Assembly: GCA_045598025.1 (NCBI GenBank)
Contig: JAZLLH010000059.1
Location: 1-56,191, forward strand
Origin: Bacteroidales bacterium
GTDB taxonomy: Bacteria > Bacteroidota > Bacteroidia > Bacteroidales > WCHB1-69
Direction of reading: 5' to 3'
DNA: 56,191 nucleotides
The notes beneath the pieces were generated by a model. It had not been told where the DNA came from. It saw only the letters and a list, made by a program, of their open reading frames with translations, and made no database searches. A program made the translations under genes and the position numbers. Below, one piece after another: positions 19,548 to 56,191 of this stretch; within the stretch, counting starts at the first letter, position 1, and the number at the start of each line of letters is the position of its first letter.

Positions 19548-21158
19548 ATGAAAAAAGGCAAATCAGGGATACCCCATACTTTCACCATCGTGTTTTTTGT
19601 GATTTTGGTAGCAGCATTGCTCACCTGGTTGCTTCCGGGTGGAGAGTTTGTTCGGACTTCGGTGGAGGTTCCGGGAAGCGGCACCCGTGAGGTGGTAGTT
19701 CCGGGTTCCTATCATTCGGTCGGTCATCAGTGGCAGACATGGCAGGTTTTTTCTTCTTTGTATGACGGATTTGTCCGGACGTCCCACATCATCGTATTCA
19801 TTTTTATGATAGGCGGAAGTTTTTGGATTGTCAATCACACCCGAGCGGTTGAGGTGGGGGTTTCTTCTTTTTTGAGCAGTGTCAGCCGTTGGCAACAAAA
19901 AAAACTGTTTCGTAATTTCCGGGCGGATTCGCTTATAATAATACTGATTATGCTGATGTTCAGTTTGTTTGGAGCGGTATTCGGAATGAGTGAAGAAACT
20001 TTGGCTTTCATGGCGGTGTTCGTTCCTTTGGCCGTTTCCATGGGTTATGATTCTTTGGTCGGCATGGGCATGTGCTATTTGGCTGCTCATGTCGGTTTTG
20101 CCGGTGGCATGCTGAATCCTTTTACCATCGGGATAGCACAGGGTTTGGCCGAGTTGCCGGCATTTTCGGGATTGGGGTACCGTTTTCTGTGCTGGGGTAT
20201 CTTTACTGCAGCGGGTATTTTTTTCGTGCTCCGTTATGCTTCCCGCTTACGCAAAAATCCCCGTCTGTCACCCATGTATGAAGCGGATGCATACTGGCGG
20301 GAACGTCTGTCCGGGAAAGAGGATTCCGAAATGGTGAAGCCGGCGGGACCTTTTGCCTGGGCTGTGTTCGCTGCCGTGTTCCTGACGGGCATTCTGCTTT
20401 CTTTTGCATTTCCCATGACGGAAATCAGTCTGAGTCAAAGTGTGTGCCGTCTTCCATTGGTGCCCGTATGCACGGGATTGTTTCTGTTATCGGCCGTTCC
20501 GGCACTGAAAAAAAATGTTCAGCTGTTTATTATGGATTTGCTGCTGACAACCATATTGGCCCTCGTCGTGGGTGTATTGGGCTATGGCTGGTACATCCGC
20601 GAAATAGCGGCTTTGTTTCTGGCGCTCGGCATATTATCCGGAATTGCCTATCGTTGTTCTTTGGATGCCATCATGCGTCTGTTCCTGGAAGGGTGCAAGG
20701 ATATGTTGACCGCAGCGCTGGTAGTGGGTCTGGCCGGAGGTATCATTGTAATATTGCAGGACGGCAAAGTAATAGATACTATGCTGTATGCCATGTCTGA
20801 GGCTGTGAGCGGAGCCGGACGCGTGGTCTCCGTCGGAGGAATGTATCTGTTTCAAAACGGCTTGAATCTGGCTATTCCCTCCGGATCGGCCAAGGCAGCA
20901 TTGACCATCCCTATCATGGCTCCGTTTTCCGATTTGTTGGACATATCCCGGCAAACGATGGTCCTTGCTTTTCAGTTCGGCGACGGTATTACCAATATGG
21001 TAACTCCTGCTTCCGGTGTGCTGGTCGGATGTCTCGGCGTGGCCAAAGTGCCGTACTCCGTATGGATGAAATGGATTGGCAGATGGATTATCCTGCTGTT
21101 CGTCATCGGTTTTCTGTTGCTGTTGCCCACTTTGTATTTTCCAATCAGCGGATTCTGA
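19548..21158 (+). CDS. YfcC/DcuC-family (AbgT-like) membrane transporter
   Basis: IPHTFTIVF, FGAVFGMSEE, GMLNPFTIGIAQ, IPSGSAKA, AFQFGDG.TN..TP.SG; many TM segments. Confidence 0.85.
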   Translation: MKKGKSGIPHTFTIVFFVILVAALLTWLLPGGEFVRTSVEVPGSGTREVVVPGSYHSVGHQWQTWQVFSSLYDGFVRTSHIIVFIFMIGGSFWIVNHTRAVEVGVSSFLSSVSRWQQKKLFRNFRADSLIIILIMLMFSLFGAVFGMSEETLAFMAVFVPLAVSMGYDSLVGMGMCYLAAHVGFAGGMLNPFTIGIAQGLAELPAFSGLGYRFLCWGIFTAAGIFFVLRYASRLRKNPRLSPMYEADAYWRERLSGKEDSEMVKPAGPFAWAVFAAVFLTGILLSFAFPMTEISLSQSVCRLPLVPVCTGLFLLSAVPALKKNVQLFIMDLLLTTILALVVGVLGYGWYIREIAALFLALGILSGIAYRCSLDAIMRLFLEGCKDMLTAALVVGLAGGIIVILQDGKVIDTMLYAMSEAVSGAGRVVSVGGMYLFQNGLNLAIPSGSAKAALTIPIMAPFSDLLDISRQTMVLAFQFGDGITNMVTPASGVLVGCLGVAKVPYSVWMKWIGRWIILLFVIGFLLLLPTLYFPISGF

Positions 21159-21294
21159 GCCAGCCGCTCTAAGTTTCCTCGTCGGCGGATGCGGTGGCTG
21201 GAATGTCCGGATAGGGAAAACGTAAATTTTTATGTCTCCGCATGGAATTTGTATTGGAATTTTATGGAAATTTGCATTTTATTATTATAATGGA

Positions 21295-43282: not shown

Positions 43283-46261
43283 TCAGCGTCTGATGATTTT
43301 GCAGACGCTGCTTTTTTGTTCTTCGTTCGTGATTTGGAGGAAGTACATTCCCTTGACGAAGGAAGATATTTCCAATGTAAAATGACCTTCTGTCGCTTTT
43401 CCTTCCAGCAGCAGGCGTCCGACAGCATCGGTGAAACGGTAGGTGCAGTTACCCGTATTTTCCGGAATGACGACATGCAATTGTTCGTATGCCGGATTCG
43501 GATACGCGAGGATGTTCAAGGGATTGTTGGTGTTTGATATTCCTAGTTCGCATGCGATTCCCAGACTTTTGCGAACGATGTATCCGCATTCGTCCGTGAT
43601 GTCAACATACAGCGTGTCCAAGCCGCTGCTGTTGATCTGCATTGTCACCCAATTCAGGCTGCTGTCGCTGCAGATGTCCCAATCCGATGAGCCGGAGAGG
43701 AACCAGCGGTATTTTTGGGCAAAAGGAATGGAATCCAGAGAGTAGATGGCGTAACTTTTTTTGTTGAAGTGCGTCTGCCCATTTATGCCGGCTGATGTGT
43801 TACCCATGCTGTCGCAGAAAATGAATCTCAGGCTGCGGAATTCATGGCAGCCTCCGTGTGTACTGTATGCGTGAAATCCCAACACTCCCTGTCCTTTTTC
43901 GGAGATGTGCAGCATGCAGCAGAGGGAGTCTTCGTTCTCCAGGGACCATTGAGGACTTTCCAGTATCCAGCGATAAGAGGCTGCGCCTGTTACCGGAGTT
44001 GTACAGAATGTGTAATCACCCAGTCCTTCCGGACGTTCTCCATGTATCTGTCCTACCTTTCCTATGGGGTCATCGCAGGTGATGTGCAGCACAACGATGC
44101 TGTCTTTTCCGTCAGCAGCCGTAAAAACCTGACGGTAGTCTCCATTTTCGGTGATTTGTATGCCGTTCCAATTCGTGCTTCCGCAAAAAGCCGTGTCCAA
44201 TTCCGTGTAGGCGGAAACCGGAATGGTGTTGCAACGGAAATGGTATTCCCATTGAGGCAGCAGGCGGGCGGAAGGTGCGTAGCAGCGGTCGGATGAATCG
44301 TTTCCCATGCGGTAACGCAGCGAGGTCCCTTCCATCAGAGCGGCATTTCTGCCTGTGCGGTCTGAAAAAGAAGTATTTTCCTTATAAAGACAGGCCAGAG
44401 AGAAACAGTTGCGGATGTATATGCTGTTCCCGTTCTCAACGAGGCACAGGGTGTCTCCGTCTCTGTACTTTCCGGCTGGGACATAGCGGATCATGGTATT
44501 CAGCACGGCGTTTTCCGGTACATCAAAACCCAGGGCCGTCGCCTTTCCGTAATTGATGGGAATGCTCAGTTGGTTTTTCTGCGCATCTGTTTCCGTCAAC
44601 AGGTAGCGGATGCAGGTGCTGTTCAGGGTCTGCGGGCGGGTCGGGCCGGACAGGACTTTCGGGCTGAGGTAATGGCTCCCGTCGCTGACGACATCGCGAT
44701 AATTGGTGTCGGTTCCGGGGATATAGTACGACAGGTATATGTATAGGGTGTCGGGAGCCGAGTCTTCGCTGTGCATGCTTCCCATGCGGTACTGGTACCG
44801 GATACGCAGACTGTCCATGCGGTAAGGATTCTGGAACAGTTTATCGGAGTGGGCCGTTCCGAAATCATCGGCTGTGGGGTCAAATACCGTGCCTATGCTA
44901 TGGATTTTGGCGCAATGACTGCTTTCCTTCGAGTAAACATGCTGCAGGGTATCCGGTTGCAGGCTGATATAGCAGAGGGTGTCCGGAGATACGCTGCTGT
45001 AGGCATCCGAGGAAACCCATCCGAAATTCTGTTCTTCCTTATAGGGATTCAGGTTGATCACTACGGACTGGTCTTTGGAGTAGTTGCCGTTTCCGCCGCC
45101 GGTGCCGATTCCGCCCGGACAGAGACTGTCGATTGTGCAGTAGCAATTGTAAGAACCTCCCCATCCCCAATTGAAATGGAAGAGGTCGTTCTTGTCGAAT
45201 CCGTCGCATACGAAAGCGTGACCGGCACCTCCTCCGGAAGGACTGTATCCGGAAAAAATCACCGGCTGCCGTTCCCTCAGTTGAGACTTGAGCAGGTTCT
45301 TCCATTGGGTGTCGTTGAAGTTGATTTTCCGTTCACCAGATGCCGAGCGGTATCCGAAGTAGTTTCGGAAGGCGTTCCGTGCGTCCTGTGCGTTTTCGTT
45401 CCAATATGCGTATACGTAGGCTCCGCTTCCTGTCGGGGAATAGGTCATGTCTGTGGCTACGCCGCAATGGTACAGCAGTTGTGCTGTGGCAGACCGTTGG
45501 TAGGCCTTGGGCAGCGCACCGAAATATTCGGGCATGTTGGCATATTTATAGGTAGTGTTTCCGAAATTGGCAGAAAGCAATCCATAGGTAGAGTGGCGGT
45601 AACTGTGGGAACCATAACCGTGGATGGGATATTTCCAGTATCGTATGACAATGGCCATGGCGGTTGCTGTACATCCTGCCGGACAACGTCCGCCGTAGTA
45701 TACGGAACTCACCTTGCCGTCTTTAGGACAGGAATCGTTGTAATAAGGCCACTGGTCCCACATGATTCGGGAGGTGAGAGGCTCCACACTTTCCGCTTTT
45801 TCATTGAACTGTATTCCGGCAGTGGGCTGCAGCAGCAGATCCCAACGGGAACTTACGCTTTCCGATGCTGGAATTTGCCGGACGACGGCATCGGTAATTT
45901 CCTCACGCATGGCGTCCAGCAGATATCTGAAATTGGTCGGCATGCCAGCTGTATCGAATCGTCCTTCCGTAGCATAGGCCAATACAGGGAGAATGTTTCG
46001 GGATGCAGACACGATGACAAAGCCTCCTCCTTTGACATTAAAAACGTAGTAGCAGGCATCTCCCGAACTTTTATGGAGTTCGTCGAGAGGTGCAATATAG
46101 GCTAATTCCAGATTGATGGCAGATTTCTGCCGATAGGAAGTGGTGAATTGGTTCAAAAAAGCACTTCCTGCCACAGCCGCATCCTGAGGCGTGACATTTT
46201 GGGCCCGTCCGCTCCATGCGAGGGCCATCATTACCAATATGGAAACAATCGGTTTTTTCAT
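43283..46261 (-). CDS. C10 family cysteine peptidase (streptopain/interpain-like) with prodomain and T9SS type A sorting domain
   Basis: Signal peptide GRA|QN; prodomain YYVFN..GGFVIVS...PVLAY; WDQ..YYN, catalytic AGCTATAMA and GHAFVCDG, HFNWGWGG; C-terminal YPNPA...GMYFLQI. Start moved to ATG 46261. Confidence 0.92.
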   Translation of the reverse strand: MKKPIVSILVMMALAWSGRAQNVTPQDAAVAGSAFLNQFTTSYRQKSAINLELAYIAPLDELHKSSGDACYYVFNVKGGGFVIVSASRNILPVLAYATEGRFDTAGMPTNFRYLLDAMREEITDAVVRQIPASESVSSRWDLLLQPTAGIQFNEKAESVEPLTSRIMWDQWPYYNDSCPKDGKVSSVYYGGRCPAGCTATAMAIVIRYWKYPIHGYGSHSYRHSTYGLLSANFGNTTYKYANMPEYFGALPKAYQRSATAQLLYHCGVATDMTYSPTGSGAYVYAYWNENAQDARNAFRNYFGYRSASGERKINFNDTQWKNLLKSQLRERQPVIFSGYSPSGGGAGHAFVCDGFDKNDLFHFNWGWGGSYNCYCTIDSLCPGGIGTGGGNGNYSKDQSVVINLNPYKEEQNFGWVSSDAYSSVSPDTLCYISLQPDTLQHVYSKESSHCAKIHSIGTVFDPTADDFGTAHSDKLFQNPYRMDSLRIRYQYRMGSMHSEDSAPDTLYIYLSYYIPGTDTNYRDVVSDGSHYLSPKVLSGPTRPQTLNSTCIRYLLTETDAQKNQLSIPINYGKATALGFDVPENAVLNTMIRYVPAGKYRDGDTLCLVENGNSIYIRNCFSLACLYKENTSFSDRTGRNAALMEGTSLRYRMGNDSSDRCYAPSARLLPQWEYHFRCNTIPVSAYTELDTAFCGSTNWNGIQITENGDYRQVFTAADGKDSIVVLHITCDDPIGKVGQIHGERPEGLGDYTFCTTPVTGAASYRWILESPQWSLENEDSLCCMLHISEKGQGVLGFHAYSTHGGCHEFRSLRFIFCDSMGNTSAGINGQTHFNKKSYAIYSLDSIPFAQKYRWFLSGSSDWDICSDSSLNWVTMQINSSGLDTLYVDITDECGYIVRKSLGIACELGISNTNNPLNILAYPNPAYEQLHVVIPENTGNCTYRFTDAVGRLLLEGKATEGHFTLEISSFVKGMYFLQITNEEQKSSVCKIIRR

Positions 46262-46291
46262 ACGAAAAATTTTGTGGTTTAAATGAGACTG

Positions 46292-46299
46292 CAAAAGTA
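46292..46299 (-). promoter_or_regulatory. -7 box (TACTTTTG) for the C10 peptidase
   Basis: TAnnTTTG overlapping the track's upstream start; ~30 nt from ATG 46261. Confidence 0.6.
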
Positions 46300-46342: not shown

Positions 46343-46350
46343 TACTTTTG
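46343..46350 (+). promoter_or_regulatory. -7 box (TACTTTTG) for kdsA
   Basis: TAnnTTTG ~20 nt from ATG 46372. Confidence 0.6.
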
Positions 46351-46371
46351 CATTTCAAAATACGATTTTTT

Positions 46372-47205
46372 ATGCAGAACGATGTTTTTTCTACACTCCC
46401 AACTTTGAAGTACACGGACAAAAATCATTTTTTTCTGATTGCAGGACCCTGTGTGATTGAAAACGAGCACATGCCTATGGAAATAGCCTCCCGTATCGCG
46501 GAGGTGTGCGACCGTTTGGAGATTCCTTTTATATTCAAGGCATCCTATAAAAAAGCCAATCGTTCCAGTCTGCATTCGTTCACGGGAATAGGAGACAGGC
46601 GGGGGTTGGAATTGCTGGCAGAGGTAGGCCGAAGCTTGCACATTCCCACTCTGACGGATGTTCATTCGGTGGCGGAAGCTTCCATGGCTGCCGAATATGT
46701 GGATGTGCTGCAGATTCCAGCTTTTCTGTGCCGTCAGACGGAGTTGCTGGTAGCTGCTGCGGAAACCGGGAAGTGGGTAAACATAAAGAAAGGGCAGTTT
46801 GTCTCTCCGGAAGCTATGTGCTTTGCTGTTGAAAAAGTGAGGGCGGAGGGCAATGATAAGGTGATGCTGACTGAAAGGGGCTCCTCTTTCGGTTATCAGG
46901 ATCTTGTCGTTGATTTTACAGGACTGCCCGTTATGCAGCGCAATCACTGTCCGGTAGTGCTGGATGTTACCCATGCGTTGCAGCAGCCGAATCAAAGCAG
47001 CGGCGTGACAGCAGGGAAACGAGACCGCATTGATGTGCTGGCCCGGGCCGGAGTGGCTGCCGGTTTTGATGGCCTTTTTATGGAAACCCATCCGAATCCG
47101 GATGAGGCTCTTTCGGACAAAACGACCATGCTTCCTTTGGATTGTTTGGAATCTCTTTTGGAAAAATTATTGCTCATACGGAAAACTTTGAACGGGTTCC
47201 GATAG
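46372..47205 (+). CDS. kdsA: 3-deoxy-8-phosphooctulonate (KDO8P) synthase
   Basis: IAGPCVIE, KASYKKANRSS, QIPAFLCRQT, NIKKGQF, ERGSSFGY, LFMETHP.P..ALSD. Confidence 0.95.
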   Translation: MQNDVFSTLPTLKYTDKNHFFLIAGPCVIENEHMPMEIASRIAEVCDRLEIPFIFKASYKKANRSSLHSFTGIGDRRGLELLAEVGRSLHIPTLTDVHSVAEASMAAEYVDVLQIPAFLCRQTELLVAAAETGKWVNIKKGQFVSPEAMCFAVEKVRAEGNDKVMLTERGSSFGYQDLVVDFTGLPVMQRNHCPVVLDVTHALQQPNQSSGVTAGKRDRIDVLARAGVAAGFDGLFMETHPNPDEALSDKTTMLPLDCLESLLEKLLLIRKTLNGFR

Positions 47206-47505: not shown

Positions 47506-50500
47506 ATGAAGAAGTTCATCTTTATGATGCTGGTGGTGTTTTTGGCACTGCCTTTCGGCTTTTCGCAAAGCCGAATCGTAATCTCGGAGAACTTCGACGG
47601 AGGCACTCAGAGTTTCACTGTTTCGCCCAGTACGGGTTGGGAACGTGACACTCTTCTGAGTGTGAGCGGTCGCCGTTCCATGTGGGGCATAGTTCCCAAT
47701 GCGGAAGGCGATTCTGTCGAACTGATTTCTCCGATGTACGACTTGAGCAACTACGCCTACGCGTACTTGCGCTTCTCCCATATCTGCAAGGTATCCGAAG
47801 ATGACGAAGTCTCTGTCGAATACCGGGAAGATTACATGGGAGCAAAGTGGACGAAGATTCCTGTAGGGGACTACAAAGGAACGACGCCCACGTACAAAAA
47901 ATCCCGCTGCTTCCACCAAGGAAGCTACAATACATGGGTCAAATCCGACCTGATGTATCAGCCGGACAATTCCTGGTGGAAGACAGAGTCTTTTGATGTA
48001 AGCCAGGAAGTTTCCTTCGCAAACGTGCAATTCAAATTCAAAATCAAGAAAGGCAGTTCGCTGGGTACCAATTTTGCCTGGGGCTGGTTTATCGATAATT
48101 TTGAATTGACAGCAGCTGTGACCCAAATAGCCCCTCCTGTAGTGGTATTGTTGGATCCTGTCATATCCGGCCAGGTATTCGGAGCCGGTCCTTATGACAT
48201 TACGGCAAAATGTGCCAAGCGCACTTTGTTGGCGCTGCAAAATCCGGTCCTTCGTTACACTTGCACCGAGTTGAGCGGACAAATCCATCAGGATTCTGTG
48301 CTGATGAAAGCCAAGGAAGGCGACAGCATCTGGGTGGCAACCATTCCTCAACAGAAAGTGGGAACGCAGGTCGCTTATACGGTATATGCCAGCGATACGG
48401 CCGGTAACAACGGCAGTGTGTTTTCTTCTTATCAAATCGGTCGTGAGTGGGGCTTTGACAGCAACTGCGTAGCTCTCATCGCTATTGATACTCCGCAGAG
48501 AGGTGCTCTCGCCGGCAAAACCAATAAAGTGGTTGTGGATATGCAGAACCGTGGATTGAAAACCCTGTCCAGTGCGGACATCAACTGGTCAGTGAATGGT
48601 GTACAGCAGTCTACTTATCACTGGAAAGGTTCTCTGATAGAAGGTTTCAATGAAAAAGTGGCTATCGGAACTTTCGTGGCCAGAGCCGATCAGTATGATA
48701 CCATCGTAGCATGGGTCTCCAATCCCAACGGAGTCACCAATACGACGGAAGATACCATGGTAACTCGTCATACCTATGGTTGCAATCAAATATTCAACGG
48801 TTCCTACACTGTGGGTGCCAGTGGCAATTTCAAGGACATCCAGTCTGCCTTGGATGCAATCAATCTGTGCGGAACGGGCGGAAACGTTATCTTGAATGTG
48901 GCATCCGGTACCTATATCGGTGGATTGGATTTCACGGGTTACATGGATATCATCGGTTCGAATGACCATCTGACGATACAGGCTTCTACCGGAAATCCTG
49001 AGGACGTTGTCATTATGTCAGACACAGCTAATCCTACGTCTTCCGTGGCTGTTTTTTCCAATGCTCATAACATCACCCTGCGCAATCTGACGATGAAGGG
49101 TATGGGAACAGCCATTCCTATCACGGATACCAACAGCAACATTACCATTGAGGGCTGCCGTATTTATTTGGATACCGAGACAACGACGACTTATGCCGGT
49201 GTGGCCATCGATGGTAGGGCAGAAAAAATCCGTATCCTCAACAACTTCATAGAGGGAGCCTATTATGGCCTGTATACCCGTGGCGTCAGCGCAACTCAGA
49301 AATTGAAAAACATCACGTTGAGAAACAATGATGTCATGTCTTCCTACTATGGTACATATTATTATTATACGGATTTCGACTATGTCTGCAACAACCGCGT
49401 CTATAACCGTACTTTAGAAGTTTCTAGTGGGTCATTTTATGGAATAGATATGTCCTATTGCGATGCCGAAGAAGTGAGTAACAACCGTGTGTGGACACGT
49501 TCAAAAGTCAGCGGCGGTCAGGGTATGTACATTTATTATTTCAATCAGGACAGTCTGCGTCGTGGATTGGTCGCGAATAACGAAGTCATTTACAATGCCA
49601 CAGGCACGGCATACGGTATCTATACCGGTTATTCTGAATGCGAATTCGTGAACAATTCTGTGCTGATGAATGGATCGGGAGCTTCTCGTGCCGTGTATTG
49701 CAACAACTATACGCAGGGCATGTCCATGCATTTCTATAACAATAACTTCGTATGCTATAACGGAGGTTATCCCATGTATTTCGTGTACAATTACTACATG
49801 GGCACGGATATACTGCTGGATTACAACAACTGCTATGGAAATGATTATATAGGATACATCGGCAGTGCTCAAACTACTTTGAGCGGATGGCAGGCGATTT
49901 CCATGGATGCCAATGCCACCAATATCAATCCTGTATTCAAGGATCCTACGGTTTCGGCTGTCTGTCTGCATTACAATGGCTTGAACTGTCCCAAATTCAC
50001 AGGTGTGGATTATGATATTGACGATACGCTGCGTACGTCTCTGACGACTTTGGGGTGCTATTCCGAAACCCCGAAAAGTTTTGATGCCGCTCTGATCGGA
50101 TTCTACGATTTGAAATCTTCCTATACGATGGGAGTAAACAATCCGCTGTATGTGATTCTGATGAATTCCGGTTCCAAGGATACGCTGAAATCCTGCGATA
50201 TTCAGTGGAGCGTCAACGGCGTTGCTCAGACACCGATGAGCTGGAATGGTCTCCTTCTGCCTTTCGAAACGGATACCGTGTATATCGGTACTTTCCAAGT
50301 GGTGGATGGAGCAGTCCACGGAAGCACTCGTCTCGCTGCCAATTTGAGCAAGCAAAACGGCATGCGTTCCGATATGAAACCGTTTAATGATTCCGTTAAA
50401 GCTTCTACTTACGGCTGTCAGTCTGCCATGGCAGGAACGTATACTATCGGTGGTACTTCAGCCAATTTCGCTTCCTTGTCAGATGCTTTGGATATTCTGG

Positions 50501-53500
50501 GAATCTGCGGTGTAAGTGGAAATGTGGAATTCCAATTGAATCCTGGAACCTATGCTCCCATTTCTTTGGGTACTATTCCGGGATTGTCCGCTACCAGTAC
50601 TCTGACCATCACTTCGGCTACCGGTAATGCGGCCGATGTAATTATTACCGGTTCCGGTACTTTGGTGAATCTGAGCGCTACCTCTTTTGTGCGCATCAAG
50701 AACCTGACTCTTGATGGATTGTCAGCTACTTATGGTGTGTACATCAATGGTGCATGCAATGACATTCAGGTGAAATACTGCAACATCAAGATGAATCCGG
50801 CCAGTACATCTACCATTTATGGTGTCTATTGTGCCAGCGGATTTGTCCGTAACGATATCCACATCGTAGGAAATAGCATCGATGGCGGTTATTACGGCAT
50901 ATATATGTACAACGGAACGGGTTCTGCTGCAGCTCAGCACGGTCTCGGACACCGCGTGGACAGCAACACGATTACCAATCCGTATTACTATGGAATGTAT
51001 GGTTATTATACCGATTTCGAAAGTGTTTCCCACAACCGTATCATAGCTCGCCGTGCCAATGCAAACACGTATTGTTACGGTATCTACACTTACTATTGTA
51101 ACCATAGATATATTGTCGGTAACTACGTAGACGCTTTGCGTAAATCCTTCAACTACAGCTATGGTATTTATGTGTATTATTCCAACTATTCAACCTATGC
51201 ACAGAATACGACGGATACCACCTACGTGTTGGACAACGATGTGCGCTGCATAGGTCAGACGGGTTACGCATATCCTATCTATATGTACTACGGTAACCAA
51301 CAGGTTCTCCACAACAGTGTGTATGTGGAATGCATGTATGACAACAGTTACGGAATCTATGTATATGAAGCATCTCCCTATCATGCGGATCTCAAAAACA
51401 ACAATGTATACATAGTGAACGGTCGTAATGCTTATCCCATTTACGCCGGAGGAACCATTAGCTGTTACAACATTGATGGCAATAATATCTACCATCCGAT
51501 GACCGGAAGCGGTTTGACGACAGCTCCTTATTTGGCATACTATAACGGAGCCCGTTCGGATTTGGCCGGTTTGAAATTGTATGATACAAATGCTACGATT
51601 CTGGAACCTGAACTCATTGACATTCAGAGAGACGGTATGGTGTGTGCCAACACCGGCATCACTACCAAACCCGTAAGCAATGTTTATTACAACACCTACG
51701 GATACAGAGATCATACCGGCGCACTCCGTGCAGCAGTTCCTACCCGTGGTGCTTACGAACCCGTTGCTCTGATCAACAATGCACAGTTGTTTGCTTTCTC
51801 CGCTCCGACGGCCGTTGTAATGATGAACGGTAGCAGTACCGATGTGAGAGTAATACTGAAAAACAGAGGTGACAGCACCTTGCGCAGTTGCACCATCGCA
51901 TGGGATGTGAATGGAATCAGCCAGACTCCTGTTCAATGGACCGGAAACTTGAGCAAAACGGATACCATGTCCGTCTTTTTGGGTAGAGTTTATGTTTTTG
52001 ACAGTTCGTATACCATTACGGCATACGTTTCCAATCCAAACGGAAAAACGGATGACCTTGCTGTGGATGACACTATTCGCACGGAACTGATCGGATGTTC
52101 CACTATGTTGAACGGCACCTATGTGGTGGGCAGCAGTGCGGCAGCCGACATGGATTTCAACAAAGCCATGCAGGTTATGAGCAAGTGCGGAGTATCCGGG
52201 GCTGTGGAACTGCAACTGGAACCCGGTGTGTATTATGCCAATCTGGACTTCACGGGAATTATCGGAATGACCAATTCCAACGTATCCGTGACCATTACTT
52301 CCACAACCGGCCACGACAGCGATGTGGTAATAGAAGCCTTGGCAGAAGAACCCACCTTCAGAATTGCCAATACCTATAATTTCACTTTGAAAAACGTGAC
52401 GGTAAGAGGTTATATGAGAGGTGCCACTTCCAATGCCATCACTTTGGACGGTAACAACAAGAACTTGACAATCCGTAATTGTATTTTGGTTACGAATAAA
52501 GTCAATTCTTCCGTAACTTCCGATGTGGCTATTTTTTCCAAACCGTCCAGTGCGGATACGGTGATGGTGATTGCCAACAACACCATTATCGGTAACGGAG
52601 GTATCTATCTGTATGGAACCAGCGGTTCCCGCAGCCATGATGTGCGTATTGACAGCAACACTATCTTGAGTCCGTACTACTATGGTATCTATACCTACTA
52701 TTACGATATCCGTACGCTCAATGCCAATTTCCTCCATAAGGATAAAAACGAAAGCGTTTGCTATTACGGACTTTATCCGGTGTATACCTACGGTGTGGAT
52801 GACCAAGCAACGAGTTTCAGTTTCAACCGCGTGCATGGAGCCTACAATAACGCACTGTATATGACCGGACAGTATTCCAATGGTGTGAGCAGTTCGAATG
52901 TAAATAATCCTGTTGTTATCTGCAACAACGAGTTCATCTGTACCGGCAGTTCAACCAGTTACAATGTGACCATGTGGAACAGCGGTGGTTATATTCTGTT
53001 CAACAATAACTCCATCATTGTTCCTCAAGGAGCATCCCGTACTTATATGTTCTCTTCCTATACGTATAATCCGGGACACTTCAAATTCATGAACAATAAT
53101 TTTGTCAACTACGGAACTGTTACCAATGTGTATTATACCAACATGGCTAACCAGATTACCACCTATGCGGATGCTTGGGACTATAATAACTATTGGCATG
53201 GTTCAGCCGTATTCAATATCAACGGTTCGGTTGCCAATACGTTGGCAGGTTTCGCCAGTCTGATACAGAATGGCAGGGATGCCCATTCTACGGAAGCGGA
53301 TCCGATGATCCCGAATGCGGATTCCTGCGCCAAGCCGGGTAAATGGGCCGGCATGCTCTGTCCTATGGCCGATTCTGCGACTACGGACATCATGGGCGTA
53401 CTGCGCAGTTCAATGACGTATAAAGGATGTTATTCCGAAACCTTCCATCTGGATGCAGCTCTGCTTAGTTTCGATGAACCTTCTTACGAAGCGGTCGTGG

Positions 53501-56191
53501 CTGGTGTTTCTTCCGATGTGAAAGTTAATCTGATGAATGTCGGAAACGAAACCATTGACAGTCTGACTATCCGTTGGACAAGAGATGGAGTGGCTCAGAA
53601 TCCTGTGAAACTGACCAATCTGAATCTGACATCCTATGCATCAGTTGTTATTCCTTTGGGCAGTTTCATTCCGGATACCAGCTCGCCTTCGACTACCCTC
53701 GTGGCATGGTGTGAAAATCCGAACGGCCGCATGGATAACAATACTTCTACAGATACCATTGTCAAGGAGTTGGTCGTCTGTGGAACTGCTTTGTCCGGAA
53801 GCTATATTGTCGGTAACAGCAGCAAGGCCGATTTCAATTCTCTTGAACAGGCTATCAGCCTGTTGAATTACTGCGGCGTTCGCGGACCTGTGGACATTCT
53901 GCTGGAAACGGGTGATTATGCTGGCTTTGAATTGGGTGTTATTCCCGGAACCAGCAGCACCAATATCGTAACCTTCACTTCCTATATGCACAGTGCGGAT
54001 ATGGTGACCATCGGCAATGCGGAACCTACAGCCATTAAATTGGATGGAACCTGCCATGTGTATTTCAAGGATTTGACCATAGGTGGAATAGACTCCAAAA
54101 ACTCTGTTGCCGTTGATATGGTCGGCTATATTGAAGACGTGTTCTTCCATCACTGCAAACTGTACGCCAGCAATACGACGACGAACAGTTCTTCACATGT
54201 GGTGAATTATGCCAACACCAACAATACGACGATTTATTTGAGTAATGTCCGCTTCATCGGCAACGAAATCCGCGGCGGTTACTATGGTCTCTACCTGTAC
54301 TATGCAGGCGGTGCCGCAGACAACTGCAAACCGGGTGCGGCCAAACGTGCTTCCGTTGTCATTGACAGTAACTACATCTATGATCAGTACTATTACCCGC
54401 TGTATTCGTACTACTACACCTACATACCGAGCTGTTCCTACAATGTGGTGAAGAGCCGTTCCGGTGCCAGCTACAACTACGGCCTGTATTTCTACTACTA
54501 CAACCTGGTGGACAAAATCGTGGGTAACCGCATCAACATCAACGTGAGCAGTTATGCCTACAGCGGTATCCGTCTGTATTATTACACCAACTATCCTTCC
54601 ACTTTCGGAACTACCACTACCGAACCGGTATTGGTTGCGGATAACGAAATTGTGAGCATCGGCGGAACCTATGCCTATGGTATTTATGCCTACTACTATG
54701 TGAATGCCAATATCCTGCACAATTCGGTGTACTGCAAGGCCCCGACGAACTACGGTATATACACCTATACTCAGGTGGCCACCTGCAACCTGAATGTGCA
54801 GAACAACATTTTCATGCTGGAAGGCGGTGCCACGACCAACTACTTTGCGTATGTGAGTGCAACAGCCACGCTGACGTCCTATCCGACTGTGTTTGACTAC
54901 AACGACTACTACACGACGAATACGGGCAAGAATACCTTCTATGTAGCCGCGGCTACGACGTATGCCAACTGGCAGTCAACCTACGGCATGGACGGTCATT
55001 CTGTAAGCGTGAGACCGGACTTCAAGAATCTTCCGAACGACCTGAGCATCGGTCAGTTCAGCGATTTGTTGAAGTGCAACCGTCAGCGCATGGTGCTTAA
55101 GGACATCAACGATGATGCCCGTACGAGCCTGACCATTATGGGTGCTTACAGCACGCCTCTGTTCGAAGGCAACGACCTGCAGCTGGAAGCTTATGCGGAA
55201 CCGGTTGTGGGCGGCATACAGTGCTTCCCGAACCAGACTCCGGTGAAGGTGACCCTCTACAACATGGGCACCAGCGATGTGGATTTTGCAGCAGCTCCTG
55301 CCAAACTGTACCTGAAGTGTGAGAGCGATTCCGTGAACTTTACGGTCAACGTTCCCGTCAATCAGGGCGGTATCGGCATCATGAAGCGCGATACCTTCGA
55401 AATCATTCCGAACATGGACATCACCTATCCGGGTCTGTACAAACTGACGGCCTGGCTGGAATGGAGCAAAGATCAGTTGTCGGATGACGACACGCTGAGA
55501 CTGGACTACTACGTCGACAAGACGGTTCTTCCTTACGACAACGACTTTACGGGTGCTTTTGCCGGTGTGGCCACGAACCAGGCCTACGGAGACATCAGTT
55601 GGGAAGTGTCTGCTACCAATCCGGTGCTGAATCCTGTGTACGGAACGGGCAGCCTGCTGTTCCGTTCATCGGAGGCCCGCGGATCCATCAGCCATGCACT
55701 GTTCACTTCCGTGAGCCTGCAGGGCACGTACAATCCGCAGCTGTACTTCTGGTATGCACACGACAATGCGAATCCTTATCTGCGCGACCAGATGGAAGTG
55801 CGCATTTCACAGGACGGCGGAGCTACCTTCAAGACGCTCCAGACGCTGTACCGTTACGATGCGAAGTGCACCCAGCCTACGTGGAAGCAGTATCAGATTG
55901 ATCTGAATCCGTACCGCAGCGGCAGCTGCATCATCATCGCCTTCACGGGCTACAGCTACGGTGGCGGCGACCAGACGGTGGACCGCGTGAAGATCATAGC
56001 CCAGCAGGATATGCAGGTGCTTGTGGACGTACCTTCGGATACGGACTTCACCGCCTGTAATCTGACGGGCCGCAACCTGACGGTATACCTGGAGAACCTC
56101 ACTTCTCAGGAAGTGCCGTTCAATGCAGGCGATTCCCTGACGGTCATGATGAGCGGAGCCTCTAACTTTGTGTACAAGCAGGCCTTGAGCG
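47506..56191 (+). CDS. Giant secreted adhesin-like protein (at least 2,895 aa, truncated by the window end): MAM/cleaved-adhesin-like domain, 4 x [CARDB/Ig-like + parallel beta-helix], then Ig and adhesin-like domains
   Basis: Hand translation of frame +1: MKKFIFMMLVVFLALPFGFS|QSR.... I saw no in-frame stop up to 56191, and none of the track's small plus-strand ORFs here use this frame. Absent from the track because it has no stop in the window. Confidence 0.92.
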   Translation, partial: MKKFIFMMLVVFLALPFGFSQSRIVISENFDGGTQSFTVSPSTGWERDTLLSVSGRRSMWGIVPNAEGDSVELISPMYDLSNYAYAYLRFSHICKVSEDDEVSVEYREDYMGAKWTKIPVGDYKGTTPTYKKSRCFHQGSYNTWVKSDLMYQPDNSWWKTESFDVSQEVSFANVQFKFKIKKGSSLGTNFAWGWFIDNFELTAAVTQIAPPVVVLLDPVISGQVFGAGPYDITAKCAKRTLLALQNPVLRYTCTELSGQIHQDSVLMKAKEGDSIWVATIPQQKVGTQVAYTVYASDTAGNNGSVFSSYQIGREWGFDSNCVALIAIDTPQRGALAGKTNKVVVDMQNRGLKTLSSADINWSVNGVQQSTYHWKGSLIEGFNEKVAIGTFVARADQYDTIVAWVSNPNGVTNTTEDTMVTRHTYGCNQIFNGSYTVGASGNFKDIQSALDAINLCGTGGNVILNVASGTYIGGLDFTGYMDIIGSNDHLTIQASTGNPEDVVIMSDTANPTSSVAVFSNAHNITLRNLTMKGMGTAIPITDTNSNITIEGCRIYLDTETTTTYAGVAIDGRAEKIRILNNFIEGAYYGLYTRGVSATQKLKNITLRNNDVMSSYYGTYYYYTDFDYVCNNRVYNRTLEVSSGSFYGIDMSYCDAEEVSNNRVWTRSKVSGGQGMYIYYFNQDSLRRGLVANNEVIYNATGTAYGIYTGYSECEFVNNSVLMNGSGASRAVYCNNYTQGMSMHFYNNNFVCYNGGYPMYFVYNYYMGTDILLDYNNCYGNDYIGYIGSAQTTLSGWQAISMDANATNINPVFKDPTVSAVCLHYNGLNCPKFTGVDYDIDDTLRTSLTTLGCYSETPKSFDAALIGFYDLKSSYTMGVNNPLYVILMNSGSKDTLKSCDIQWSVNGVAQTPMSWNGLLLPFETDTVYIGTFQVVDGAVHGSTRLAANLSKQNGMRSDMKPFNDSVKASTYGCQSAMAGTYTIGGTSANFASLSDALDILGICGVSGNVEFQLNPGTYAPISLGTIPGLSATSTLTITSATGNAADVIITGSGTLVNLSATSFVRIKNLTLDGLSATYGVYINGACNDIQVKYCNIKMNPASTSTIYGVYCASGFVRNDIHIVGNSIDGGYYGIYMYNGTGSAAAQHGLGHRVDSNTITNPYYYGMYGYYTDFESVSHNRIIARRANANTYCYGIYTYYCNHRYIVGNYVDALRKSFNYSYGIYVYYSNYSTYAQNTTDTTYVLDNDVRCIGQTGYAYPIYMYYGNQQVLHNSVYVECMYDNSYGIYVYEASPYHADLKNNNVYIVNGRNAYPIYAGGTISCYNIDGNNIYHPMTGSGLTTAPYLAYYNGARSDLAGLKLYDTNATILEPELIDIQRDGMVCANTGITTKPVSNVYYNTYGYRDHTGALRAAVPTRGAYEPVALINNAQLFAFSAPTAVVMMNGSSTDVRVILKNRGDSTLRSCTIAWDVNGISQTPVQWTGNLSKTDTMSVFLGRVYVFDSSYTITAYVSNPNGKTDDLAVDDTIRTELIGCSTMLNGTYVVGSSAAADMDFNKAMQVMSKCGVSGAVELQLEPGVYYANLDFTGIIGMTNSNVSVTITSTTGHDSDVVIEALAEEPTFRIANTYNFTLKNVTVRGYMRGATSNAITLDGNNKNLTIRNCILVTNKVNSSVTSDVAIFSKPSSADTVMVIANNTIIGNGGIYLYGTSGSRSHDVRIDSNTILSPYYYGIYTYYYDIRTLNANFLHKDKNESVCYYGLYPVYTYGVDDQATSFSFNRVHGAYNNALYMTGQYSNGVSSSNVNNPVVICNNEFICTGSSTSYNVTMWNSGGYILFNNNSIIVPQGASRTYMFSSYTYNPGHFKFMNNNFVNYGTVTNVYYTNMANQITTYADAWDYNNYWHGSAVFNINGSVANTLAGFASLIQNGRDAHSTEADPMIPNADSCAKPGKWAGMLCPMADSATTDIMGVLRSSMTYKGCYSETFHLDAALLSFDEPSYEAVVAGVSSDVKVNLMNVGNETIDSLTIRWTRDGVAQNPVKLTNLNLTSYASVVIPLGSFIPDTSSPSTTLVAWCENPNGRMDNNTSTDTIVKELVVCGTALSGSYIVGNSSKADFNSLEQAISLLNYCGVRGPVDILLETGDYAGFELGVIPGTSSTNIVTFTSYMHSADMVTIGNAEPTAIKLDGTCHVYFKDLTIGGIDSKNSVAVDMVGYIEDVFFHHCKLYASNTTTNSSSHVVNYANTNNTTIYLSNVRFIGNEIRGGYYGLYLYYAGGAADNCKPGAAKRASVVIDSNYIYDQYYYPLYSYYYTYIPSCSYNVVKSRSGASYNYGLYFYYYNLVDKIVGNRININVSSYAYSGIRLYYYTNYPSTFGTTTTEPVLVADNEIVSIGGTYAYGIYAYYYVNANILHNSVYCKAPTNYGIYTYTQVATCNLNVQNNIFMLEGGATTNYFAYVSATATLTSYPTVFDYNDYYTTNTGKNTFYVAAATTYANWQSTYGMDGHSVSVRPDFKNLPNDLSIGQFSDLLKCNRQRMVLKDINDDARTSLTIMGAYSTPLFEGNDLQLEAYAEPVVGGIQCFPNQTPVKVTLYNMGTSDVDFAAAPAKLYLKCESDSVNFTVNVPVNQGGIGIMKRDTFEIIPNMDITYPGLYKLTAWLEWSKDQLSDDDTLRLDYYVDKTVLPYDNDFTGAFAGVATNQAYGDISWEVSATNPVLNPVYGTGSLLFRSSEARGSISHALFTSVSLQGTYNPQLYFWYAHDNANPYLRDQMEVRISQDGGATFKTLQTLYRYDAKCTQPTWKQYQIDLNPYRSGSCIIIAFTGYSYGGGDQTVDRVKIIAQQDMQVLVDVPSDTDFTACNLTGRNLTVYLENLTSQEVPFNAGDSLTVMMSGASNFVYKQALS
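48463..55160 (+). repeat. Four tandem ~540-575-aa super-repeats within the giant ORF
   Basis: Units begin near 48463, 50080, 51772 and 53450. Each has N.G...L.S..I.W..(N/D)G..Q.P, then C....G(S/T)Y.(V/I)G, then A...(L/M/I)..CG..G.V...L..G.Y, then Tyr-rich beta-helix turns, and ends with a T..G(C/A)Y motif. Boundaries approximate. Confidence 0.85.

Follow-up and report, generated by a model that had tools for sequence, protein, structure and literature searches.

A giant secreted surface protein with four Ig and beta-helix super-repeats, encoded at a contig end of an uncultured Bacteroidales bacterium

General features of the gene

What kind of protein is encoded by a frame of 8.7 kb that runs off the end of its contig, and what might it do for the cell? 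The window, the whole stretch of 56,191 nucleotides analyzed here, is a complete contig (C59) of a genome of 74 contigs and 1.9 Mb that belongs to an uncultured gut or rumen Bacteroidales bacterium. In an open-ended ORF listing, one unbroken frame of 2,895 codons occupies 47506..56190 on the forward strand, starting with ATG and free of stops up to the contig end. A giant continuous frame of at least 2,895 aa, missing from the ORF track, had been proposed originally, and both points are correct; the frame is absent from the track because the default listing omits frames that run off the source. The window closes within a genuine gene of ~3,270 codons. Its product is a giant protein secreted to the cell surface, with the following features.

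47506..47565 (+): Sec (SPI) signal peptide, aa 1-20, sequence MKKFIFMMLVVFLALPFGFS, cleavage FS|Q, no lipobox Cys
47566..48120 (+): N-terminal beta-sandwich "head", aa 21-205, with 46 invariant columns in 9 relatives
48121..48456 (+): Ig-like domain, aa 206-317, AF2 strands at 212-311 with pLDDT 75-89
48457..50076 (+): super-repeat 1, aa 318-857 (unit HMM envelope 318-857; AF2 pLDDT above 90), made up of a CARDB-like Ig domain (aa 318-425), a Cys-bracketed cap (426-455) and a beta-helix (~457-857)
50077..51768 (+): super-repeat 2, aa 858-1421, by unit HMM and alignments A1 and A2
51769..53448 (+): super-repeat 3, aa 1422-1981, by unit HMM, not the ortholog of unit 3 in most relatives
53449..55161 (+): super-repeat 4, aa 1982-2552, by unit HMM, holding the GC3 change-point at nt ~54385
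55162..55521 (+): Ig-like domain, aa 2553-2672, by alignment A3 and AF2 of an 81%-identical ortholog
55522..56031 (+): choice-of-anchor-J (MAM-like jelly-roll) domain, aa 2673-2842, by NF038128, with 48 invariant columns in 11 sequences
56032..56190 (+): first part of a further Ig-like domain, truncated where the contig stops and continued in orthologs

The gene adjoins kdsA and a gene for a C10 protease. No sprF/porP-like partner adjoins it, and the gene has no PUL or SusC/D context. The relatives share no conserved gene neighborhood, the surroundings of the orthologs being unrelated housekeeping genes. Lysine-fermentation genes lie downstream of the gene in three relatives and are absent downstream here. 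The 3' 1.3 kb is covered by metatranscriptome contigs at >=95% identity, a match that concerns the conserved 3' end only and may derive from related strains or paralogs.

Signal peptide and N-terminal head

The predicted cleavage of the signal peptide (MKKFIFMMLVVFLALPFGFS|QS) falls ahead of a conserved Gln, and the F-[SA]-Q junction is kept in most aligned relatives, which upholds the GFS|QS site of the original prediction. The head that follows is modeled by AF2 as beta strands at pLDDT 30-86, a moderately confident beta-sandwich. It has no match in Pfam, NCBIfam or the PDB; in particular, the HMMs for MAM (PF00629) and cleaved adhesin (PF07675) do not match it, and the label "MAM/cleaved-adhesin-like" once given to this domain is not confirmed. 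A sequence search of the PDB with the N-terminal 320 aa gave nothing usable. Profiles of the head and of the C-terminal jelly-roll domain show no similarity to each other (hhalign probability 0.5%); the idea of two adhesin-like domains of one kind is therefore unsupported.

Four Ig and beta-helix super-repeats

The bulk of the protein consists of four super-repeats of ~550 aa with a mutual identity of 27-32%, each running from a CARDB-like Ig domain through a Cys-bracketed helical cap into a right-handed parallel beta-helix. This layout, proposed from the letters of the sequence, is recovered in all its parts: the four units by the unit HMM and by alignment, the cap by two cysteines (C426 and C455) that are invariant across 49 aligned units, and the divergent beta-helices by the AF2 model of unit 1 together with Pfam matches of homologous units. 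At pLDDT above 90 over most of aa 320-857, the model comprises an Ig sandwich, a capping helix (445-455) and ~11 coils with three short strands each. The same 49 units share a ladder of five invariant asparagines (N660/N692/N717/N746/N774) spaced 25-32 residues apart.

None of the four units in the window reaches a Pfam threshold, and none matches PF13229 or PF05048 even at E <= 1. Among the homologous units of relatives, PF13229 (Beta_helix) is matched by 9/49 (best E 1.9e-16) and PF05048 (NosD) by 7/49; the homology of the window's units to these families is therefore transitive. CARDB (PF07705) matches weakly at aa 328-415 (16.3 bits against a gathering score of 22.7), and five of the 49 units of relatives pass E <= 0.01. 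Against the PDB, the unit profile finds the CARDB-like 2kl6 at E 0.003 and, weakly, the GH87 alpha-1,3-glucanase 7c7d (E 0.007) and the pectate lyase 5olp (E 0.27), while a sequence search with the 4-unit profile gave nothing usable. Foldseek with the unit 1 model matches 2uve (GH28) and, among phage proteins, tailspikes or others with a pectin-lyase fold. The Foldseek queries were multi-domain models, and their matches, mostly to generic Ig or macroglobulin strings at low TM-scores, suggest a fold class only, not a function.

C-terminal module and the missing end

After the units, the original prediction placed an Ig domain and a second adhesin-like domain. The Ig domain is there (residues 19-131 of the AF2 model of the 81%-identical ortholog, at pLDDT 80-90) and the second domain matches choice-of-anchor J; on it, MAM (PF00629) scores 13.8 bits (below 26.4) and cleaved adhesin (PF07675) does not match. 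NF038128 scores 31.2 bits (cut-off 30) on positions 55123-56190 alone and 25.5 bits on the whole 2,895-aa protein, and the choice-of-anchor-J match is therefore borderline. Sequence searches of the PDB with the last 350 aa and with profiles A4 and A5 gave nothing usable. The choice-of-anchor-J domain is the best conserved part of the protein: its aa sequence is 87-92% identical to that of orthologs even though synonymous sites have almost reached saturation. It is likely a functional hot spot.

How the protein ends can be read from its relatives. All 17 full-length relatives measure 3,210-3,268 aa, align at 39-59% identity over 98-100% coverage and carry PF18962. The C-terminal module is exactly 718 aa in 7/7 fetched subfamily genes. 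It runs from an Ig and a choice-of-anchor-J domain through three more Ig domains to a T9SS sorting domain of type A, the family of TIGR04183 and PF18962, with matches to Por_Secre_tail, CARDB and choice-of-anchor J. Because the relatives are of near-constant length and their module of constant size, ~375 aa are missing from the window. Contig C8 of the same genome adds 28 nt past the window end, which read ...SGRLENREID as in an ortholog, and Logan contigs from public runs also extend over it. Another contig end of this genome (C21) opens with the last 29 aa of a CTD, NVSDLSNGIYYYSMEYQGQRIVRKMNVAR*, followed by a terminator-like hairpin and a T-run. The CTD of the giant gene, which lies outside the assembly, is thus predicted from the orthologs and this unlinked contig end. 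K-mer pairing of contig ends found nothing that continues from C59 or precedes C21. Most contig ends overlap by 141 nt.

Conservation and mosaicism

Near-invariant positions make up 30% of the head and 45% of the C-terminal module, and 10-17% of the units. Strong purifying selection acts on the head and on the C-terminal module. Rapid divergence and exchange by recombination mark the beta-helix modules. In the window copy a segment has been swapped at ~aa 1200-2200: unit 3 shares 24-28% identity with its counterpart in six related genes and 60% with that of a further one, L004, and it groups with units 3 and 5 of L009 (SH 0.997). At nt ~54,385, GC3 jumps from 0.526 to 0.713 (LLR 35; none of 200 permutations exceeded 8.9). 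The gene as a whole is 59% identical to its best relative, whereas that relative's housekeeping neighbors are 89-96% identical to this genome.

Recent gene conversion was considered for the conserved 3' end and rejected. Four-fold sites there are 0.4-0.6 identical to those of three orthologs, about the same as elsewhere, and the conservation relative to these orthologs is therefore due to purifying selection rather than recent exchange. The last 138 nt of the window are an exact repeat of C8:29-166(-), where they are joined to unrelated sequence. The C8 fragment is a separate deletion-derived pseudogene, and the contig breaks at this two-copy 3' repeat.

Distribution of the super-repeat family

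Representative proteins that match the super-repeat number 20,064. Many have longer tandem arrays than the window protein, and some, with many units, reach 7,800 aa in total length (largest 7,814). Unit number is three in a paralog from the same genome (C29), four in the window copy and six in L009. There are 3 or more copies in this genome, 5-14 in genomes of the genus and 52 in one related genome of the same taxonomic family, within which the number ranges from 0 to 52. In the 52-copy genome the conserved C-terminal domain is found in ORFs of 1,000-4,700 aa, most above 2,000, and these ORFs take up roughly a tenth of the genome DNA. Where relatives are named, the annotation is generic only, with NCBI names such as "right-handed parallel beta-helix repeat-containing protein" and "T9SS type A sorting domain-containing protein". 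Some distant homologs join Beta_helix with SprB repeats (PF13573).

This protein family is very large and widespread, and no member appears to be characterized. The novelty first claimed for the tandem architecture was overstated, given how many proteins share the super-repeat. T9SS cargo of Prevotella intermedia with 1-3 pectin-lyase-fold domains has already been noted (Open Biol 2025, PMC11969387). The architecture itself will not surprise a specialist, and the window protein adds to a known, uncharacterized kind.

Secretion and probable O-glycosylation

Secretion by the T9SS, suspected from the start, gains support from the Por_Secre_tail in all complete relatives and from the genome itself, which encodes SprA (2,448 bits), GldM (297 bits) and 46 CTD-bearing ORFs. 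Among the gliding-specific lipoproteins, GldB at 253 bits, GldD at 201 bits and GldH at 81 bits clear their cut-offs. Taken alone, GldJ reaches 446 bits, under the cut-off of 458.2 bits, and 458.5 bits together with neighboring in-frame stretches. The giant protein contains 24 O-glycosylation sequons (D[ST][AILVMT]), against 11.5 +/- 3.3 in shuffles, and judged by these motifs is probably O-glycosylated.

A proposed model of function

The best explanation, to which we assign a probability of roughly 0.6, is a giant T9SS-secreted, surface-anchored, non-catalytic beta-helix fiber or adhesin. Following established T9SS biology, the protein would first be exported by Sec, and its CTD would then guide the folded protein through SprA/Sov. 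PorU would cut off the CTD and join the protein to anionic LPS, so that the C-terminal Ig stalk would sit at the outer membrane and the head would point outward. Fully extended, the chain of ~18 domains would measure some 60-70 nm. Its four distinct beta-helix faces and two conserved jelly-roll domains may bind polysaccharide or glycoprotein surfaces, for which plant fiber, mucus and other cells are candidates.

We infer a binding or adhesin function because enzyme signatures are absent. No Pfam family of lyases, hydrolases or esterases, and none of CAZy type, is matched by the 49 units at E <= 0.01, nor is any of CAZy type matched by the window's own units at E <= 1. A match of the units to a characterized enzyme family with an intact active site, which would have spoken against the original prediction, did not turn up. 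Apart from one D and one R in the C-terminal cap, the 15 residues that never vary between units are all N, C, G or Y. The units have no conserved cluster of acidic or basic residues in common, and among orthologs the conserved charged residues are scattered, 3-6 per helix body. Absence of a shared catalytic constellation leaves room for active sites specific to single units.

The protein might instead be a mobile gliding adhesin, carried like SprB or RemA by the gliding motor, with its paralogs giving traction on different surfaces. The gliding lipoproteins, GldM and SprA agree with this, as do the multi-copy family and the distant homologs that combine Beta_helix with SprB repeats. However, the CTD of the orthologs is type A and that of SprB type B, the window protein has no SprB repeat (PF13573), and it has neither an adjoining sprF/porP-like gene nor, in its orthologs, anything but housekeeping surroundings; we consider a gliding role unlikely.

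No fold is commoner among polysaccharide lyases and the GH28, GH49 and GH87 hydrolases than the beta-helix, and the pectin-lyase fold in particular is typical of PL1/3/6/9 and GH28/49/55/87. A multi-catalytic surface polysaccharide degrader, in which every beta-helix has diverged as a lyase or hydrolase with its own glycan substrate, would suit a plant-fiber-rich habitat. It would also fit the weak profile matches to 7c7d and 5olp and the Foldseek match to 2uve, which likewise has an N-terminal Ig-like domain. Against it stand the missing CAZy-type families, the lack of a charged cluster conserved across units, the few scattered charged residues that orthologs conserve in each helix body, and a gene without PUL or SusC/D context, which together make such an enzyme quite unlikely.

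Two readings start from the variability of the gene. According to one, which is quite doubtful, it would be part of a recombining surface-variation system of gliding gut Bacteroidales, in which interchangeable Ig and beta-helix cassettes and a common, conserved 3' anchor module move between full-length genes and silent, truncated copies, of which the C8 remnant would be one. If true, shuffling would give a mobile adhesin a new specificity or antigenic face. Compatible with it are the swapped segment, the mosaic GC3, the exact repeat at the 3' end and the 0-52 copies per genome. The other, that of a variable protective coat or decoy against phages, protozoan grazing or host immunity instead of substrate binding, is very unlikely. 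The low identity of the gene beside its housekeeping neighbors, its segmental replacement and GC3 mosaic, and gene birth and death, seen in the C8 deletion derivative and in copy number within the family, speak for a coat; but adhesins would be expected to diversify just as much, no sign of an invertase or shufflon was noticed adjoining the gene, and the strong conservation of the two jelly-roll domains suggests a specific conserved ligand.

Finally, an assembly artefact or pseudogene, that is, a chimeric or decayed frame without a protein product, might be suspected where a contig ends inside a gene and its last 138 nt recur next to unrelated sequence, but it is extremely unlikely for 8.7 kb without a stop, collinear over 98-100% with 17 relatives of near-identical length, with unit boundaries and 718-aa tail in exact register and the C8 fragment accounted for as a separate deletion derivative.

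Comparison with known systems

Giant genes of this kind are among the largest in the small (~2 Mb) genomes of gut and rumen Bacteroidales, and because they break short-read assemblies, they have been deposited mostly as fragments labeled "hypothetical". The domain map, the choice-of-anchor-J domain and the full set of gliding genes provide constructs and testable hypotheses on how uncultured fiber-associated Bacteroidales attach to substrates or move over them.

The closest comparators are uncharacterized Bacteroidota proteins of the type of MGI6291234.1, MBR4511269.1 and RPH33061.1, which share the super-repeat, the choice-of-anchor-J module and the type A CTD. They differ from the window copy in unit number, which varies, and in its swapped middle segment and GC3-shifted 3' end. 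SprB and RemA are T9SS-secreted gliding adhesins of Flavobacterium johnsoniae. The likeness to them lies in giant, repetitive, multi-paralog T9SS cargo that forms surface filaments, read here from genes, with gldB/D/H/J present; SprB, however, carries SprB repeats and a CTD of type B and has SprF encoded next to it, and none of these features was found here. Phage tailspikes and depolymerases and the GH28 exopolygalacturonase 2uve have, by Foldseek, the same arrangement of an Ig or FN3 domain followed by a pectin-lyase fold, but at TM-scores of 0.15-0.41 and 9-14% identity, and neither a catalytic motif nor an HMM match at family level goes with it; in the window protein the units stand in tandem instead of being trimerized. 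Cargo of P. intermedia with pectin-lyase-fold domains, or with FN3 plus choice-of-anchor-J, has been regarded as putative adhesins by domain content only (PMC11969387). Compared by the domains described, the likeness is that of T9SS type A cargo built of tandem beta-helices or choice-of-anchor-J, while the window protein holds both domain types in one chain of ~3,270 aa, with four regular Ig and beta-helix units.

Reading frame and genomic context

The genome is assembled in 74 contigs (1.9 Mb, 97% complete), one of which is the window in full. The giant gene, which the original prediction had reported as missing from the ORF track and as beginning with a signal peptide, is indeed a single frame of 2,895 codons at 47506..56190(+), with an ATG start and free of stops up to the contig end in an ORF listing that allowed open ends. 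Its N-terminus, MKKFIFMMLVVFLALPFGFS/QS, reads as a classical signal peptide, and the F-[SA]-Q junction is kept in most of the aligned relatives. The upstream neighbour is a kdsA-type gene (DAHP_synth_1, 46348-47205), followed by a 300-nt AT-rich spacer. Two genes upstream and divergent, at 43283-46294 (-), lies the gene for a C10 cysteine protease (streptopain/PrtT-like) secreted by the T9SS; in addition to a Spi inhibitor pro-domain it carries a PKD-like domain and a type A T9SS sorting domain (CTD).

Domain architecture

The following features lie between the conserved N-terminal head and the C-terminal module; units were delimited with an HMM derived from the protein's own four internal repeats.

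aa 206-317, + strand: Ig domain, directly C-terminal to the head
aa 318-857, + strand: unit 1 (unit HMM)
aa 857-1421, + strand: unit 2 (unit HMM)
aa 1421-1981, + strand: unit 3 (unit HMM)
aa 1981-2552, + strand: unit 4 (unit HMM)

The four units of Ig domain, cysteine-bracketed cap and beta-helix correspond to those originally predicted, and are 27-32% identical to one another. Only 15 positions are invariant in an alignment of 49 units from the window gene, three paralogs of its own genome and eight genes on six related contigs. Among them are the cap cysteines C426 and C455, glycines, tyrosines and five asparagines spaced 25-32 residues apart (N660, N692, N717, N746 and N774); the C-terminal cap carries an invariant D...R...G.Y motif. 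An AlphaFold2 model of aa 1-857, built with the unit alignment, has a mean pLDDT of 83.9 (>90 across most of aa 320-857) and a pTM of 0.68. Unit 1 is modelled as an Ig sandwich (aa 322-426), a short strand and capping helix (aa 445-455) and about 11 coils, each made of three short strands, a stack that is a predicted right-handed parallel beta-helix.

The window's own units fall below every Pfam threshold; matches among the 49 homologous units are to Beta_helix PF13229 (9/49, best 1.9e-16), NosD PF05048 (7/49) and CARDB (5/49). Against the PDB, the unit profile weakly matched a CARDB-like domain (2kl6, E 0.003), the beta-helix of a GH87 alpha-1,3-glucanase (7c7d, E 0.007) and a pectate lyase (5olp, E 0.27). 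Foldseek returned chiefly generic Ig strings; its other matches included GH28 2uve and, from phages, proteins annotated as 'pectin lyase fold', tailspike or 'right handed beta helix'.

Adhesin-like domains had been predicted at both ends. C-terminal to unit 4, an Ig domain is followed by a jelly-roll domain that scores 31.2 bits with NCBIfam choice-of-anchor J (cut-off 30) and just 13.8 bits with MAM. The head (N-terminal 205 aa) has 46 invariant columns across 9 sequences and is modelled with modest confidence as a beta-sandwich, but Pfam, NCBIfam and PDB searches gave it no family match, and a profile comparison detected no relatedness to the C-terminal jelly-roll.

The missing C-terminus and the contig break

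Of the 342 relatives found in a homology search with the window protein, the 17 closest full-length proteins (3,210-3,268 aa, 39-59% identity, 98-100% query coverage) all end in a type A CTD with PF18962 (Por_Secre_tail), and most also carry PF07705. In 7 of 7 fetched subfamily genes the C-terminal module is exactly 718 aa long. It opens with an Ig domain and choice-of-anchor J, and three further Ig-like domains then lead to a type A T9SS sorting domain; an AlphaFold2 model was made of the 81%-identical ortholog. Because this module is constant, the window protein is about 375 aa short, which puts its expected full length at about 3,270 aa. SprA (2,448 bits), GldM and 46 CTD-bearing ORFs are present in the genome; with the CTD in relatives, these make the predicted T9SS export of the giant protein well supported, its own CTD being outside the assembly.

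Two contig ends of the same genome fit the predicted missing end. C8 carries the window's last 138 nt exactly plus 28 nt extra, reading ...SGRLENREID as in the ortholog. C21 opens (21099-21186 (-), locus L013) inside a matching type A CTD, of which it retains the final 29 aa (NVSDLSNGIYYYSMEYQGQRIVRKMNVAR, then a stop), probably from the 3' end of either the window gene or a paralog on C60; beyond the stop, a terminator-like hairpin with a T-run can be read in the sequence.

At C8:1-560 (-) (locus L014, downstream of gdhA), frameshifted T9SS CTD remnants come first, then what is left of the signal peptide and N-terminus of a giant gene, LALPFGFSQSRTTFTENFN, with ~85% DNA identity to window 47545-47598. 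This piece is joined out of frame to an exact copy of window 56054-56191, and the fusion point coincides with a domain boundary and a short (A/C)TTCA microhomology. The locus is an internal-deletion pseudogene of a second paralog, with aa ~34 joined to aa 2848 (~8.4 kb lost), and the 3' end of its source paralog is identical to the window gene's.

Most contig ends overlap by 141 nt in a k-mer comparison, which points to assembly from a de Bruijn graph with k=141. That the 3' ~1.1 kb exists in two exact copies accounts for the contig break and for the absence of the 3' piece from the bin; the depth of the 3' end in one DNA run, ~2-3x that of neighbouring genes, is consistent with two copies. 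A 1,895-aa N-terminal paralog fragment at C60:1-5685 (-) and a 2,024-aa C-terminal fragment with CTD at C44:1-6072 (+), each cut by a contig end, represent one further paralog or two. Genes of this family systematically break the short-read assembly.

Mosaic history and rates of change

Units cluster by position across genes in the unit tree, so the four-unit layout is ancestral. The exception is unit 3 in two genes, that of the window and the related gene L004: it is just 24-28% identical to unit 3 in six others and falls with units of a six-unit protein (SH 0.997). Against the related gene L005b, low identity extends over aa ~1200-2200; this segment is 24-40% identical to the six related genes, compared with 50-70% elsewhere in the gene. 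The pattern indicates segmental replacement with breakpoints within helices. Window ~51100-54100, which takes in the whole of unit 3, is non-orthologous to the six genes and shared with L004 alone.

GC3 rises from 0.526 to 0.713 at nt ~54,385 (codon ~2293, inside the beta-helix of unit 4), with a change-point LLR of 35 versus at most 8.9 in 200 permutations. No such shift was found in the relatives compared, where GC3 is high throughout. The 3' end is thus a mosaic, which suggests that the 3' ~2 kb came from a higher-GC3 relative. Public gut metagenomes and metatranscriptomes contain the last 1.3 kb of the gene at ≥95% identity and little of what precedes it.

The window protein is just 59% identical to its best relative, whose housekeeping neighbours are 89-96% identical to proteins of the window's genome. 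In the head 30% of positions are near-invariant and in the C-terminal part 45%, but only 10-17% in the units; with four-fold sites near saturation throughout the gene, the conserved ends reflect purifying selection.

Family size and distribution

The conserved C-terminal domain occurs in 19 of 24 related genomes of the window's family versus 1 of 16 from other families of the order, in 1 to 52 copies per genome, on ORFs of ~1,000-4,700 aa, most >2,000. G006, a 3.9-Mb genome of the same family with 52 separate choice-of-anchor-J matches in frames of this size, devotes roughly a tenth of its length to them; other genera of the family carry 0-14. Members of the subfamily defined by the 718-aa tail are found in uncultured Bacteroidales and Lentimicrobiaceae MAGs, some rumen-labelled, with several copies per genome. 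Unit number varies from 3 (the paralog on C29) through 4 (window gene) to 6 (L009, a relative). On two related contigs (L005:64-19792 and L006:1-19768), two ~3,255-aa paralogs each stand head to tail with spacers of ~170-270 nt. Lysine 5,6-aminomutase genes lie 3' of the gene in three relatives, a synteny that the window's genome does not retain.

Function

The gene encodes a Sec/T9SS-routed protein of ~18 domains, in which the ends are conserved and the four beta-helices evolve fast. From known T9SS biology, PorU would remove the CTD and the protein would then be anchored to anionic LPS, its Ig stalk proximal and its head distal, as a fibre of roughly 60-70 nm. Searches for catalysis came out negative: none of the 49 units checked matched a lyase, hydrolase or esterase family, and no acidic cluster is conserved across units. 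The helices are therefore read as probable binding or structural modules rather than enzymes. O-glycosylation sequons number 24, versus 11.5 +/- 3.3 expected, which suggests a glycoprotein. We regard a surface adhesin or fibre as the best explanation (probability roughly 0.6). The original prediction, which had proposed this, described the protein accurately; its functional step was reasonable but unproven.

The first rival is a gliding adhesin. Besides its T9SS genes, this gut or rumen Bacteroidales genome encodes Gld homologs at C74:19653-20618 (GldB), C33:35412-35960 (GldD), C29:24969-25388 (GldH) and C56:18892-20355 (GldJ). GldB, GldD and GldH pass curated cut-offs; on its own GldJ reaches 446 bits (cut-off 458.2), and 458.5 only with neighbouring stretches summed. 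By gene content the lineage may be gliding-capable, but the CTD is of type A, and SprB repeats and a sprF neighbour are absent. A multi-catalytic glycan-degrading enzyme is the second rival. A variable protective coat and, last, an artefact are the other rivals to the adhesin or fibre.

Comparison with known proteins

The protein is less novel than first thought: the unit profile matches 20,064 representative proteins at E <= 0.001, of which 5,924 pass E <= 1e-30; proteins as long as 7,814 aa, with many units in tandem, are among the matches. Named members are without exception MAG proteins, labelled 'hypothetical', 'right-handed parallel beta-helix repeat-containing' or 'T9SS type A sorting domain-containing', and these generically annotated relatives are the nearest known things. 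Next closest is T9SS cargo of Prevotella intermedia with 1-3 pectin-lyase-fold domains, listed along with putative adhesins that combine FN3 with choice-of-anchor-J domains (PMC11969387). SprB and RemA resemble the window protein as functional analogues only. The window gene joins a known yet uncharacterised kind.
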